NCBI GenBank assembly: GCA_009781955.1
Contig: WQUT01000047.1
Span: forward strand, 1-22,811
DNA from: Pseudomonadota bacterium
GTDB lineage: Bacteria > Pseudomonadota > Alphaproteobacteria > Rs-D84
Length of the DNA: 22,811 nucleotides
Direction of reading: 5' to 3'
Part shown: one piece after another, positions 3,100 to 15,339 of the stretch
How positions within the stretch are numbered: position 1 is the first letter of the stretch
Layout: the number at the start of each line of letters is the position of its first letter
Position numbers and translations under genes: made by a program
The notes under the pieces: model-generated
Told to the model about the DNA's origin: nothing
What the model saw: the letters and a program-made list of their open reading frames with translations, nothing else
The model's database searches: none

Positions 3100-3173
3100 G
3101 CCCCAATAGTATAATGGTAGAACACGTCCTTGGTAAGGACGAGGCGCAAGTCCGATTCTTGCTTGGGGCACCA
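3100..3173 (+). tRNA. tRNA-Thr (anticodon GGU) with encoded CCA; atypical T-loop and D-stem
   Basis: Manual cloverleaf: acceptor GCCCCAA/TTGGGGC, discriminator A, CCA. Anticodon arm CGTCC-TTGGTAA-GGACG. T-arm GCAAG-TCCGATT-CTTGC. D-loop AATGGTA with GG. Oddities: C where U55 is expected, an A:A mismatch in the D-stem, and a 4-nt variable loop. Confidence 0.75.
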
Positions 3174-4580: not shown

Positions 4581-4609
4581 AAAACCGGTCGGGCGACCGG
4601 TTTTTATTT
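4581..4609 (+). terminator. Rho-independent terminator after the OB-fold gene
   Basis: CCGGTC-gggc-GACCGG (4585..4600) followed by TTTTT (4601..4605), starting 3 nt after the stop. Confidence 0.8.
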
Positions 4610-4624
4610 CGCGCAATAATAAAG

Positions 4625-4652
4625 TTGATTTTCCGTTAAACTTAGATATAAT
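4625..4652 (+). promoter_or_regulatory. Candidate sigma70-type promoter for the aspS leader
   Basis: TTGATT (4625..4630), a 16-nt spacer, then TATAAT (4647..4652). This would give a leader of about 130 nt. It competes with the alternative that this segment belongs to the T-box leader itself. Confidence 0.4.
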
Positions 4653-4727
4653 TAGCGCGTTATTTTTACTTCGTGATGACACGATTGACAACCGGATAGC
4701 GAATAAAAGTAGCATAATAAGAACAAA

Positions 4728-4790
4728 GCAAGGTGGCACCGCGGTGGATCCCATCGCCCTTGCGCTGGAATTAAAAATAAAGAGGTGCCA
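4728..4790 (+). promoter_or_regulatory. T-box antiterminator/anti-sequestrator element controlling aspS
   Basis: AAGCAAGGTGGCACCGCGG matches the conserved T-box core GGTGGNACCGCG. It folds as GCAAGG (4728..4733), a 7-nt bulge TGGCACC, GCGGTG-gatcc-CATCGC, then CCTTGC (4758..4763). The bulge is complementary to GGTGCCA (4784..4790), which overlaps the SD and the spacer before the ATG. Confidence 0.6.
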
Positions 4791-4791
4791 G

Positions 4792-6570
4792 ATGATTTCC
4801 AATAAATACCGCACGCATACCTGTGGCGGGCTGAATAAATCCAATGTGGGCGCGACCGTCACCTTGTCCGGCTGGGTGCATCGCAAACGCGACCACGGAT
4901 CGCTGCTGTTCGTGGATCTCCGCGATAATTACGGCATCACGCAATGTGTGTTTGACCTGACCGATGCCACTGTCGCCGGCATAGACAAAATCCGTCCGGA
5001 ATCCGTGATTACGGTCGGGGGCCGCGTTGTCGCGCGCGACGCATCCGCAATCAACGGCAAAATCCCGACCGGCGAGATAGAGGTCAAAGCGTCGGATTAC
5101 AAGGTGCTGAGCGAGGCCGACGTCCTGCCGTTCCAAGTATTCGGCGAAGAGGACGTGTCCGAAGACCTGCGCCTGAAACACCGTTACCTGGACCTGCGCC
5201 GCGAACGCATGCACGGCAAAATACTATTCCGCAACCGCGTGATACGGGCGATGCGCGACAAAATGTGGGAACTGGGCTTTTCCGAATTCCAAACGCCGAT
5301 TTTGGGCGCGACATCGCCCGAAGGCGCGCGCGATTTCATCGTGCCGTCGCGGCTGCACCACGGCATGGTTTACGCCCTGCCGCAATCGCCCCAGCAATGG
5401 AAGCAGATGACCCAGATTTCCGGGTTTGACCGGTATTTCCAGATCGCGCCGTGCATGCGGGACGAGGATTTGCGTTCCGACCGCATGCTGGAATTCTATC
5501 AGCTGGATTTGGAGATGTCGTTCGTAGAGCAGAGGGATGTCCAGGAAGTGTGCGAGGCGGTCGTAGTTTCGCTGATAAAGCAGTTCTCGGATGCGGCCAG
5601 GCTGCATCCCGAAATCCCCCAGATACCGTATGATGACGCGATGCTGAAATACGGGTCGGACAAGCCGGACCTGCGCAATCCCATAATAATCAGCGACGTT
5701 ACCGAAATATTCCGCAATTCCGATTTCGGGGTATTCGCGAACGCGATCCGCGACGGCGCGGTCGTGCGCGCCGTGCCCGCGCCAAAATCGGTGGACAAGC
5801 CGCGCAGCTGGTTTGACAAGGTAGAGGGTTTCGCCAAGGACGAGCTGGGGCTCGCCGGATTGGGATACATAGTGTTCGCGGAAGACGGCCCGAAGGGCCC
5901 GGTCGCAAAGAAACTGACCCCGGAACAGATAGCCGCCATCCGCGTTGCCGCGGGCGCGGACGCGGGGGACAGCGTGTTCTTTGTATGTGCGGCGCCGGAC
6001 ATTGCGGCCAAGGCCGCGGGCAAACTGCGCACGCGTTTCGGCGAAGAGCTGGGCCTGGTCAATCCGGATGAATTCCGCCTGTGCTGGGTCATAGATTTTC
6101 CGTTCTTTGAACCGGATCCGGAGTCGCCCACCGGCATTGCGTTCGGGCATAATCCGTTCTGCCGGCTGCTGGACGATTCGCATGAACTGGATTTGTCCGA
6201 GCCGTTAAAGCTGAAAGCGTCGCAGTATGACTTTGTCCTGAACGGCCAAGAAATCGGCGGCGGATCTCTGCGCAATTACAATCCGGAGAACATGCTGAAA
6301 CTGTTCGCGGCGACCGGATACGGCGAAGACATTGTCAAACAAAAGTTTGGCGGGCTGTATACCGCGTTCCAATACGGCGCGCCGCCGCACGGCGGGCTGG
6401 CCATGGGGATAGAGCGCATAGTCTGCATATTGTTGGGCGAAGAAAATCTGCGCGAGGTTACGATGTTCCCGACGAACCAGCGCGGCCAGGACCTGATGAT
6501 GGGCAGTCCGAACACCCCGTTTGAACAGCAGCTGCGGGATGTGCATATCCAGTTCAGAAAGAAAAATTAA
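4792..6570 (+). CDS. aspS: Aspartate--tRNA ligase (bacterial type)
   Basis: The N-terminus MISNKYRTHTCGGL...VTLSGWVHRKRDHGSLLFVDLRD aligns to the AspRS anticodon-binding OB domain. Class II motifs FRDE-like (MRDEDLR), QLDLEMSF and GGLAMGIERIV are present. AGAGG lies 6 nt upstream of ATG 4792. The listed GTG at 4744 lies inside the T-box helix. Confidence 0.95.
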   Translation: MISNKYRTHTCGGLNKSNVGATVTLSGWVHRKRDHGSLLFVDLRDNYGITQCVFDLTDATVAGIDKIRPESVITVGGRVVARDASAINGKIPTGEIEVKASDYKVLSEADVLPFQVFGEEDVSEDLRLKHRYLDLRRERMHGKILFRNRVIRAMRDKMWELGFSEFQTPILGATSPEGARDFIVPSRLHHGMVYALPQSPQQWKQMTQISGFDRYFQIAPCMRDEDLRSDRMLEFYQLDLEMSFVEQRDVQEVCEAVVVSLIKQFSDAARLHPEIPQIPYDDAMLKYGSDKPDLRNPIIISDVTEIFRNSDFGVFANAIRDGAVVRAVPAPKSVDKPRSWFDKVEGFAKDELGLAGLGYIVFAEDGPKGPVAKKLTPEQIAAIRVAAGADAGDSVFFVCAAPDIAAKAAGKLRTRFGEELGLVNPDEFRLCWVIDFPFFEPDPESPTGIAFGHNPFCRLLDDSHELDLSEPLKLKASQYDFVLNGQEIGGGSLRNYNPENMLKLFAATGYGEDIVKQKFGGLYTAFQYGAPPHGGLAMGIERIVCILLGEENLREVTMFPTNQRGQDLMMGSPNTPFEQQLRDVHIQFRKKN

Positions 6571-9760: not shown

Positions 9761-9819
9761 TCCCCGTTCCCCTTGTATTTTGATTATAATGTTCTATACT
9801 GAGGCAGTAAAGTGAAAAT

Positions 9820-9847
9820 GTAGGGGCAAATAATTATTTGCCCCTAC
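9820..9847. repeat. 28-bp perfect palindrome GTAGGGGCAAATAA|TTATTTGCCCCTAC (core-less form of the 67-bp element)
   Basis: An exact palindrome equal to the two terminal arms of the elements at 850 and 2988. It lies 12 nt upstream of the uvrB ATG. Confidence 0.9.
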
Positions 9848-9859
9848 AAGTTGGTTAAA

Positions 9860-13405: not shown

Positions 13406-13508
13406 CAAAGTGACAGAGTGACAGAGTTATTGCAACCGCGCACAAAGTGCGCGGTTATTATTTGTTGCGGCTTTGCCGCAACACCACAACTCTGTCACTT
13501 TGTCACTC
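13392..13508. repeat. TGACA-octamer periodic inverted repeat enclosing two terminator hairpins (convergent tsaE / ftsA-rpe ends)
   Basis: Four TGACA at 8-nt period (13395, 13403, 13411, 13419) face two TGTCA (13493, 13501). Inner hairpins are AACCGCGCAC-aaa-GTGCGCGGTT (13434..13456) and GTTGCGGC-ttt-GCCGCAAC (13464..13482). Confidence 0.85.
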
Positions 13509-15287
13509 TTTGCGCAGCAAAGATTGCACCGCCAATGGAAAATCCGCGGCATTGGCCAGATACGACGCGGACGCCAGGAAATCCGCGCCCGCGGCCCAGC
13601 ATAGTTTCGCCGTCGCCGGATTGATTCCGCCATCCACGCTGATTTTGAAACACAACCCATATTTCCGCCGGGTATTGGCAAGCGTTGAAATCCGATACAC
13701 TGCATCCGGCAGGAATTCTTGCCCGTTCGGGCCGGGGCGTATAGACATCACCAGAATTTCATCAACCTCTTTTAATATCGGTTTCAATATTTCCAGCGGC
13801 GAATCCGGGTGCAGCGCGATTCCCGCCCGCTTTCCCAATTCGCGTATCTTTTTCAGCGCCGCCCGCGCGCCGTTCGTGCCGGTTGATATTATTATGGTAT
13901 CCGCCCCGGCCGCCGCCGCCTGTTCCGCCCAGATTATCGGGTTTTCGGTCATCAGGTGAACATTCAAATGAGCGTTTGTGTGTTCGCGGATAAAGCGAAG
14001 CTCGTCCATGCTGCCGGTTATTCTGTTCACATAAAATCCATCCATCACGTCGCAATGAATCATGCTGATGCCGCCGGATTCAAACAGCTTGTAAGTCGTG
14101 GGGCTGCGCATATTAAAACCCTGGGTGCTGGGCATAATCGGAATAAAGGCCGGCGTTTTCGCGATCTTTCTGCGGCGGAATATTTTGGGAAGCCAGGATA
14201 ACAATCTGCCCCATTTTTCCCGGCGGGCGACATAGTGTTTCGCGCGCGCCGCATCGTTCTGCCAGATTTGTTTGGCGCAGGCGGCGACGGCGGCGTCCGC
14301 CCCCAGATTATGAACGGGCAGCCCGAACATCTCGCCCGCCAGATTTTCTATTCCGGGTATATTCGTGCCGCCGCCGGAAATATAGACTGCTGACGGCCCG
14401 TATTTTTCTATGTGCCGCGCCAATTCTGCCCGCGCCAGTTCCATGATTTCGCGCAATGCGGGCAGGCCCGCGTCGCACACGTCGGCGCGCGACAATTCGT
14501 AACCGGCGTCCGCGACAGCGAATCTGTCCATTTCGCTGGATGCGGCGACAAGGCTGGCCACCTTTATCTTTTCCGCGTCGGGGAAAGGAATGCGCAGCCT
14601 GTCGGCTATATCGTTTGTGATTTTAATCTGGCCCATCGGGATCTTTGACAGCGACACGATGCCGCGCGCGGTCCAGCATGACACGGTTGTCCATGCCGCG
14701 CCCAGGTCAATGAAGACGGCGGGCGCGGCGGATTTGCGCGCGGCCATCCCGATAAGCACCGCCGGGTCAAAAAAGCCCGCCGATTCTATGTGCGCGGTGC
14801 GCAATACGGATTGCGCCGAATGCATGTCTTCGCGCGAATAAGAGATGACATGGAACACCGACGACAGGGCGCAATCGGTCTGGCCGACCGGCAGCGATAT
14901 GTTCTTGAATCCGGGGATGTCATAGCGCAGCGGGATTATATGCAGCGGCGCCTCGTTCGCGTTCTGCAAATCAAACAATATTTCGGAAATCTGTTTGCCG
15001 ATGTCGTTCGCGGAAATCTTGCGCGCGCCGCCCCATTCCGTCGTTTTATTGATTATCGCCGACCGCGCGAATCCGAAATCGCCGGTGACATAGGCCGATT
15101 CAAAATGCTTTCCAAGTTGGGATTCCAGCTCGTCAACCGCGGTTTTAAGGGCGAACGCGGTGTCGGGCGATTCGCAGATTTTCAGAACGCTCTGCGCGAC
15201 GCGGCCGCCGCGCACGCGAACGCCCAGCGCGCGGACCGCAGAGGATCCCAGATCAAGGCAAAGAAAAGACGAGTCAATCAGGTTCAT
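13503..15287 (-). CDS. ftsA: Cell-division protein FtsA fused in-frame to ribulose-phosphate 3-epimerase
   Basis: N-terminal roughly 370 aa: actin-fold FtsA (LCLDLGSSAVRALGV, VFIDLGAAWTTV, ITNDIADRL, YISGGGTNIPGI), ending in an amphipathic helix KWGRLLSWLPKIFRRRK. The frame then continues without a stop into an Rpe domain (IHCDVMDG, NVHLM, LVMSIRPG, ISVDGGI). I prefer ATG 15287 (MNLIDSS) to 15311, which lies in the repeat. Confidence 0.8.
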   Translation of the reverse strand: MNLIDSSFLCLDLGSSAVRALGVRVRGGRVAQSVLKICESPDTAFALKTAVDELESQLGKHFESAYVTGDFGFARSAIINKTTEWGGARKISANDIGKQISEILFDLQNANEAPLHIIPLRYDIPGFKNISLPVGQTDCALSSVFHVISYSREDMHSAQSVLRTAHIESAGFFDPAVLIGMAARKSAAPAVFIDLGAAWTTVSCWTARGIVSLSKIPMGQIKITNDIADRLRIPFPDAEKIKVASLVAASSEMDRFAVADAGYELSRADVCDAGLPALREIMELARAELARHIEKYGPSAVYISGGGTNIPGIENLAGEMFGLPVHNLGADAAVAACAKQIWQNDAARAKHYVARREKWGRLLSWLPKIFRRRKIAKTPAFIPIMPSTQGFNMRSPTTYKLFESGGISMIHCDVMDGFYVNRITGSMDELRFIREHTNAHLNVHLMTENPIIWAEQAAAAGADTIIISTGTNGARAALKKIRELGKRAGIALHPDSPLEILKPILKEVDEILVMSIRPGPNGQEFLPDAVYRISTLANTRRKYGLCFKISVDGGINPATAKLCWAAGADFLASASYLANAADFPLAVQSLLRKE

Positions 15288-15296
15288 GGTTAGGCG

Positions 15297-15339
15297 CTGG
15301 GCACTGGGCACTGGGCACTAGTTACTAGTGCCCAGTGCC
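15297..15339. repeat. CTGGGCA-heptamer hairpin between ftsQ and ftsA
   Basis: ctgggca x3, then ctagt|t|actag tgcccag tgcc. A 16-nt perfect inverted repeat pairs 15307..15322 with 15324..15339. The right end overlaps the ftsQ stop codon. Confidence 0.9.

Follow-up and report, generated by a model that had tools for sequence, protein, structure and literature searches.

The window examined here—positions 1–22,811 of contig WQUT01000047.1 in GenBank assembly GCA_009781955.1, assigned to the alphaproteobacterial lineage Rs-D84—carries aspS, the gene for aspartyl-tRNA synthetase (AspRS). The 5′ leader of this gene, at positions 4659–4794, is probably a highly reduced member of the T-box family: a tRNA-sensing translational switch that would work by masking the Shine–Dalgarno (SD) sequence. 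Comparison with the leaders of related aspS genes shows it to be genuine, conserved, and T-box-derived, and its most likely role is that of a translational switch answering to uncharged tRNA-Asp or tRNA-Asn. What the analysis shows, in silico, is a conserved sequence, a covarying secondary structure, a codon/discriminator pattern, and a conserved complementarity.

The T-box core and its conservation upstream of aspS

The T-box core GGUGGCACCGCG (equivalent to GGTGGCACCGCG) lies at 4732–4743, 5′ of aspS. Its pattern, GGTGGNACCGCG, has a single match in the window, against 0.01 expected by chance. An initial annotation, made from the sequence of the window alone, had proposed a T-box-type antiterminator at this site, quoting the 19-mer AAAGCAAGGUGGCACCGCG; the 19-mer is present, starting at 4725 rather than at the reported 4726. 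When folded with ViennaRNA, the segment 4722–4768 takes exactly the shape expected of such an element—helix A1, a bulge, and helix A2—at −18.7 kcal/mol and in 82% of the ensemble.

How widely is this leader shared? The closest relatives of the AspRS encoded in the window are 62–74% identical to it and come from uncultured gut and rumen Alphaproteobacteria, labeled, among other names, Candidatus Enterousia, "Rickettsiales," or "Alphaproteobacteria bacterium." In 46 related loci, each from a species-level genome, GGTGGCACCGCG sits 60–140 nt 5′ of aspS. The 12-base core is unchanged in front of this gene across 47 species despite the divergence of the synthetase, and, apart from two more distant loci with a fuller T-box (L070 and L078, described below), the remaining loci, mostly more distant, have plain short aspS leaders. 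A covariance model (R1), built on the 46 relatives with the window held out, scored window positions 4658–4769 at 66.6 bits (E = 6.9e-16), compared with 77–110 bits for the relatives themselves; it detected no further copy of the leader, whether within the window or across 571 kb of loci. In the 47-leader alignment, 90.2% of the cells at paired positions form standard pairs, against 35–56% when the partners are slid, and compensatory changes are seen at 14 of the 22 pairs; the covariation and pairing values were reached by none of 500 shuffles. RNAalifold independently recovers the same helices. The proposed antiterminator is thus borne out by its A1/bulge/A2 fold, by covariation, and by the held-out model, and its motif is conserved, with covariation, in the aspS leaders of 46 other species.

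The element is unevenly distributed among close relatives. Five lineages without a T-box leader (L027, L039, L042, L044, and L050) are close by AspRS and interspersed among T-box-bearing lineages in the AspRS tree, which points to repeated loss, or gain, of the element. Some contigs in the set (L001–L003, L012, L051, and L057) are labeled Muribaculaceae, Bacteroides fragilis, or Lactobacillales. L001–L003 and L012 have an alphaproteobacterial-type AspRS, the aspS leader, and synteny with tRNA-Thr, and L051 and L057 have the AspRS match only; these contigs are probably mis-binned.

In the window, aspS is preceded by a tRNA-Thr(GGU) gene (3100–3173). Most loci likewise have a tRNA-Thr copy upstream of aspS, which in L004 and L033 is on the opposite strand, and a tRNA-Met is often close by.

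Specifier, bulge, and expression platform

How might so short a leader select a tRNA? Read 5′ to 3′, the 47 leaders share one anatomy: a covarying C-stem, a kink-turn (K-turn), an upper helix of 2–4 bp, a 9-nt apical loop, a purine-rich linker, and the antiterminator. The family K-turn is a 3-nt bulge plus tandem G-A/A-G pairs, its GA present on the 5′ side in 46 of the 47 leaders and on the 3′ side in 43. The initial annotation, unable to build a canonical Stem I, had nonetheless suggested that GUGAUGA (4673) could be one half of a K-turn, a guess that the alignment supports, the predicted K-turn GA lying at 4678–4679. What the alignment adds is an ultrashort K-turn hairpin serving as Stem I, with the codon in its apical loop.

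Among the Asp codons earlier listed as specifier candidates, GACA at 4687 is the predicted specifier, GACA at 4678 supplies the GA of the K-turn, and GAUA at 4645 falls in a predicted promoter. That promoter also accounts for the supposed "F-box" CCGTTA (4633–4638), which is not conserved in relatives and lies between the −35 and −10 hexamers, so that it is probably not transcribed. The leader is bracketed by this promoter-like site (4625–4652), which would imply a transcript start near 4659, and by the terminator of the upstream gene (4587–4602), the only terminator-like site found.

Positions 4–6 of the apical loop read GAC in 39 of the 47 leaders and AAC in the other 8; the next base is a purine in every leader. 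On a rough AspRS tree, G-to-A changes in the codon recur, the AAC form turning up at six or more separate points. G73 is common to bacterial tRNA-Asp and tRNA-Asn, the anticodons of which differ solely at position 36, and a nondiscriminating AspRS charges both (PMC9976931). The only triplet change tolerated is therefore a switch between the two possible tRNA substrates of AspRS—the behavior expected of a specifier. By its G-U pairing capacity, tRNA-Asn (GUU) could also read GAC. The bulge UGGCACC is invariant (47/47), its variable position always C. This C predicts G73 in the cognate tRNA, matching what the literature reports for tRNA-Asp and tRNA-Asn (PMC9976931) and agreeing with the initial assignment of the UGGC bulge to tRNA-Asp.

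Between the T-box core and the ATG, no terminator-like site was found, as had been noted earlier. The box GGUGCCA (4784–4790) complements the bulge exactly and is separated from the aspS ATG by 1 nt. In the minimum free energy (MFE) fold of the whole leader, the bulge (4734–4740) pairs with 4784–4790 and the A2 hairpin is kept. This bulge-paired state has an energy of −23.1 kcal/mol and the antiterminator state one of −21.6 kcal/mol, which makes them near-isoenergetic (within 1.5 kcal/mol of one another), and in the window the accessibility of the SD is 0.32 in the former versus 0.76 in the latter. The pairing of bulge to ribosome-binding region has an energy of −12.8 kcal/mol, equaled by 0 of 500 shuffles. 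A canonical sequestrator, in which the 3′ strands of A2 and A1 pair with the ribosome-binding region, is not supported (−9.4 kcal/mol, equaled by 11% of shuffles). The unusual partner put forward in the initial annotation—the bulge itself rather than the 3′ strands—has statistical support in the window, and the pairing is kept with G-U-compatible changes in the closest relatives. With no terminator downstream, and with the bulge able to pair to the ribosome-binding region, control of aspS is probably translational.

A 7-nt box complementary to the bulge, with G-U pairs allowed, occurs in 40 of the 47 leaders. In the subgroup of the window (the window, L001–L004, and L020) it ends 1–4 nt 5′ of the ATG, in the variants GGUGCCA, GGUGUCA, and GGUGUUA, all of which can still pair with the bulge. 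In long forms of the leader it lies 38–76 nt 5′ of the ATG as the 5′ arm of a hairpin inserted between antiterminator and start codon (e.g., L008 1660–1732 and L023 2921–2992), the 3′ arm of which complements the SD region and co-varies with it. This arrangement suggests that the long forms use a three-step relay, in which the bulge would act on the box, the box on the anti-SD, and the anti-SD on the SD. Platforms of both kinds, short and long, occur at scattered points of the AspRS tree.

From these patterns we infer tRNA binding, discrimination between charged and uncharged tRNA, and a translational read-out, as follows. Uncharged tRNA-Asp (anticodon GUC) would pair with GAC in the apical loop of the K-turn-based Stem I—tRNA-Asn (GUU) might do so too, by G-U wobble—and UGGC in the bulge would base-pair with the 3′-terminal G73-C-C-A of the tRNA. 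With the bulge so occupied, A1 and A2 would form, the ribosome-binding site would be free, and AspRS would be made. When no such tRNA is at hand, UGGCACC would bind GGUGCCA over the SD and spacer, and initiation would be blocked. The predicted elements are collected in Table 1.

Table 1. Coordinates of the aspS leader, its predicted parts, and the regulated gene in the window
Feature	Position	Strand	Sequence or detail	Basis
Predicted sigma-70-type promoter	4625–4652	+	TTGATT, 16-nt spacer, TATAAT	10/12 consensus matches
Ultrashort Stem I	4659–4713	+		MFE fold, 47-leader alignment, covariation, independent RNAalifold consensus
Stem I basal helix	4659–4668 with 4704–4713	+		
Stem I C-stem	4670–4674 with 4699–4703	+		
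K-turn	4675–4679 with 4697–4698	+	bulge GAU 4675–4677; G4678 A4679 opposite U4697 A4698	
Stem I upper helix	4680–4683 with 4693–4696	+		
Apical specifier loop, 9 nt	4684–4692	+	AUUGACAAC	putative specifier GAC (Asp) 4687–4689, conserved purine A4690
Single-stranded purine-rich linker, in place of Stem II, IIA/B, and Stem III	4714–4727	+	AUAAU AAG AAC AAA	column conservation, comparison with L070 and L078
T-box antiterminator/antisequestrator	4728–4763	+		fold, covariation, RNAalifold, partial Rfam alignment, motif count
Helix A1	4728–4733 with 4758–4763	+	GCAAGG with CCUUGC	
Antiterminator bulge, 7 nt	4734–4740	+	UGGCACC; UGGC at 4734–4737	
Helix A2	4741–4747 with 4751–4757	+	GCGGUG(G) with (C)CAUCGC	
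Ribosome-binding region	4780–4794	+	SD AAGAGG 4780–4785, box GGUGCCA 4784–4790, ATG 4792–4794	
aspS, putative regulated gene	4792–6570	+	aspartyl-tRNA synthetase, 592 aa	Pfam tRNA-synt_2, tRNA_anti-codon, GAD; orthologues

Leader-peptide attenuation was considered and rejected: the leader has a single AUG (4676), and the 7-codon frame that it starts contains no Asp codon and is not conserved.

Some relatives carry a further motif, GGGYGCG, about 10 nt 5′ of Stem I (L005, L007–L010, L012, L014–L018, L021, L022, L038, L043, L045, L048, L049, and L063). It complements both a CCC just 3′ of Stem I and the invariant CGCGCCC formed by the 3′ strands of A2 and A1, and might provide one more alternative pairing, in competition with the antiterminator.

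Missing domains and competing explanations

Which parts of an ordinary T-box does this leader lack? Stem I ends in the 9-nt specifier loop, with no distal double T-loop platform to bind the tRNA elbow. In translational T-boxes this platform is dispensable, and apical-loop specifiers and an ultrashort Stem I are known among them (PMC7583486). Several observations weigh against a tRNA-sensing switch. There is neither a Stem II nor a IIA/B pseudoknot, Stem I and A1 being joined only by an unstructured, purine-rich linker of 14–27 nt, and in place of a Stem III helix, which in T-boxes belongs to the discriminator domain together with flanking purine strings (RRRxG...AA), there is a 3–4 nt remnant between two purine runs. 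An antiterminator without Stem III is reported to show no appreciable tRNA binding (PMC7583486). The A2 pair adjoining the bulge, whose G-U form is said to be the main steric sensor for the aminoacyl group (PMC7583486), is G-C in all 47 leaders (G4741–C4757 in the window). The window is itself an imperfect representative: its K-turn places GA opposite UA, so that one sheared pair is replaced, its upper helix has just two Watson–Crick pairs, and its whole-leader fold is no more stable than shuffles (z = −0.7). Across the family, SD accessibility in free versus antiterminator-forced folds (ON versus OFF) gave no uniform signal and was clean for the window only, and in four short-form leaders (L019, L024, L028, and L035) the bulge has no complementary box. 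Neither the window nor 48 loci yielded a gene for tRNA-Asp or tRNA-Asn.

To the same side belongs the low score with the Rfam T-box model (RF00230). With permissive filters the window reached 23.8 bits, against a gathering threshold of 93 that none of 19 loci scanned passed; at gathering thresholds the window yields no T-box call, its sole match being tRNA-Thr. The initial annotation had named the lack of a significant match to this general model as an outcome that would refute it; that outcome is half realized here, and the held-out family model gives a significant match. In the permissive alignment, only the antiterminator fits well, against the 3′ half of the model, and the model's Stem I is deleted. 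The Stem I that Rfam does place was forced onto the terminator of the upstream gene and is meaningless. Read this way, the low score reflects missing domains and not the absence of the element, and it means that annotation pipelines miss the aspS leader.

Two aspS leaders from metagenome-assembled genomes of other gut Alphaproteobacteria, L070 (1680–1830) and L078 (2830–2975), are fuller T-boxes; L078 scores 49.4 bits (E = 4e-10) with the Rfam model, likewise under the threshold of 93. Both resemble the window in the gene they precede, the K-turn, a 3-bp helix, a 9-nt loop with the codon at positions 4–6 followed by A, and the UGGC bulge. They differ in retaining Stem II, a IIA/B element (with an F-box-like CCCGUUA), and a Stem III hairpin at the very spot of the remnant, as well as in having U opposite the first A2 base and AAC as specifier. 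By sequence and predicted fold, L070 and L078 are intermediates linking the minimal form to ordinary T-boxes. In the minimal form, the linker runs corresponding to AAG and AAR are 96–100% purine by column conservation.

Could the T-box parts have been kept for some purpose other than sensing charging? A T-box-derived leader might be blind to aminoacylation, or need a protein cofactor, serving as a sensor of tRNA-Asp/Asn abundance or mainly as a structured translational operator whose parts are retained for another partner. The lost Stem III and the change of the A2 sensor pair from G-U to G-C in 47 of 47 leaders speak for this, both features being central to aminoacylation sensing (PMC7583486), as does the want of either a distal Stem I platform or a Stem II to reinforce tRNA binding. 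We nevertheless regard it as unlikely. The UGGNACC bulge is strictly invariant along its full length, conservation extends to the purine strings that usually border Stem III, and the codon is confined to the two tRNAs that AspRS can charge, from which we argue that both tRNA contacts have stayed under selection. Less probable again is control through transcription or mRNA stability—by Rho-dependent termination or RNase access, for example—with the pairing of bulge and box a by-product. The nonuniform SD-accessibility modeling and the distance of the long-form box from the ATG (38–76 nt) would fit such control, but the leader has no intrinsic terminator, the box of the window subgroup ends 1–4 nt before the ATG, and the 3′ arm of the long-form hairpin complements and co-varies with the SD region.

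In Escherichia coli, thrS has an autoregulatory operator that mimics a tRNA and is bound by the synthetase. An AspRS-binding operator of this type would sit where the leader sits, on the synthetase's own mRNA beside the ribosome-binding site, and the apical loop does look like an anticodon loop, with a pyrimidine-U before the triplet and a purine after it. The loop bears the codon GAC/AAC, however, and not the anticodon GUC/GUU, and the invariant T-box core, together with intermediates that match the Rfam T-box model, points to a tRNA as the partner; we consider such an operator very improbable. As for a chance resemblance without function, suggested by the subthreshold Rfam score and the unremarkable single-sequence fold z-score, the comparative data already refute it: an invariant core in 47 species with diverged AspRS, strong covariation, and an E value of 6.9e-16 from the held-out model leave it practically no room.

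The tRNA-sensing, SD-masking switch remains our preferred reading, and it can be extended, more tentatively and with somewhat more doubt than belief, to a stronger proposal. The aspS leader may be the smallest natural T-box (about 105 nt, counted from the Stem I base through A1), with a bulge that doubles as an anti-SD sequence. In many species it may read tRNA-Asn instead of tRNA-Asp, coupling a nondiscriminating AspRS to the indirect Asn-tRNA pathway. Such an element would work with the anticodon–specifier and NCCA–bulge duplexes, the K-turn, and the purine linker only, dispensing with the elbow contact, Stem II, the pseudoknot, the Stem III helix, and the G-U sensor pair.

Relation to known T-boxes and other features of the window

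How does the leader compare with T-boxes already described? The closest likeness is to the actinobacterial ileS ("class II") T-boxes of Mycobacterium tuberculosis and Nocardia farcinica, which share an ultrashort, platform-less Stem I with an apical-loop specifier above a K-turn, a UGGN-bulge antisequestrator, and control by masking and exposure of the SD (PMC7583486, PMC12647780). Class II elements, however, keep Stem II, the IIA/B pseudoknot, and Stem III, described as essential there, none of which the aspS leader has; the S-turn in Stem II and the IIA/B pseudoknot are held to make up for the truncated Stem I (PMC7583486). They also have a G-U rather than a G-C pair in A2, and they sequester the ribosome-binding site with the 3′ strands of A1/A2 rather than, as predicted here, with the 5′ T-box bulge. 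The aspS leader differs further in its Gram-negative, alphaproteobacterial host and its putative Asp/Asn specificity.

The glyQS T-boxes of Bacillus subtilis and Geobacillus kaustophilus naturally lack Stem II and IIA/B, the loss of Stem II being attributed to a strong GGC:GCC codon–anticodon duplex (PMC7583486). They had been the smallest well-studied architecture, and they differ from the aspS leader in having a long Stem I with an elbow-binding platform, a Stem III, and a transcription terminator. The NT-box of Clostridium acetobutylicum, reportedly described by Saad et al. in 2012 and 2013, is said to be an Asn/Glu two-codon T-box on a tRNA-dependent amidation operon. It would resemble the aspS leader in tying the status of tRNA-Asn to the indirect Asn-tRNA pathway, and would be unlike it in being, reportedly, a canonical long transcriptional T-box in a Firmicute.

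The surveys consulted place T-boxes in Firmicutes, Actinobacteria, Chloroflexi, and Deinococcus-Thermus, with two delta-proteobacterial leuA cases besides (PMC3766115, PMC2494555). These leuA T-boxes, from Geobacter and Pelobacter, are the only proteobacterial ones in those surveys (2 of 125 proteobacterial genomes) and to that extent resemble ours; they differ in being described as typical, in their delta-proteobacterial hosts, and in preceding a biosynthetic gene (PMC2494555, PMC3766115). No literature linking T-boxes to the gut Alphaproteobacteria lineage was found in the searchable library, which is not proof of absence. Judged by sequence comparison, the aspS leader is a new T-box architecture in a host group without previously known T-boxes. 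When metagenomes were searched for this architecture with a discriminator base other than C, a strict pattern had no match, and a looser one gave at least 120; those listed were either ordinary terminator-type T-boxes or chance occurrences in GC-rich coding DNA, and the highest full-length R1 score among them was 33.9 bits. As the metagenome collection offered no positive control, this is a weak negative.

If the proposed function holds, several implications follow. T-boxes are treated as a Gram-positive hallmark; their range would widen to a clade of gut Alphaproteobacteria, in which the T-box is conserved on aspS, an essential synthetase gene. The translational T-box search of TBDB used a custom model in Actinobacteria together with Rfam hits with truncated Stem I (PMC7778990), and both Rfam-based annotation and TBDB-style searches overlook the aspS T-box. 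In current structural models, a truncated Stem I requires Stem II, and an antiterminator requires Stem III and the G-U pair for tRNA binding and charge sensing. A natural family without Stem II, Stem III, or the G-U pair, under strong purifying selection at both tRNA-contact sites, would test what a minimal tRNA-sensing RNA can be, and the minimal leader could serve as a compact scaffold for engineered tRNA-responsive switches. The recurrent toggling between GAC and AAC offers a natural experiment in specifier change, tied to the two substrates of the nondiscriminating AspRS.

Elsewhere in the window, a strong hairpin, GUAGGGGCAAAUAAUUAUUUGCCCCUAC (9774–9853), stands directly before the start of uvrB (9851), in the gap that separates this gene from the divergent asmA-like one. 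As a match to R1 it is weak (17.7 bits) and spurious, and it has no T-box bulge. The open reading frame at 13503–15311 on the minus strand (602 aa) joins an FtsA-like domain (residues 199–334) to a ribulose-phosphate 3-epimerase domain (408–585) and is either an unusual fusion or the product of a mis-called start.

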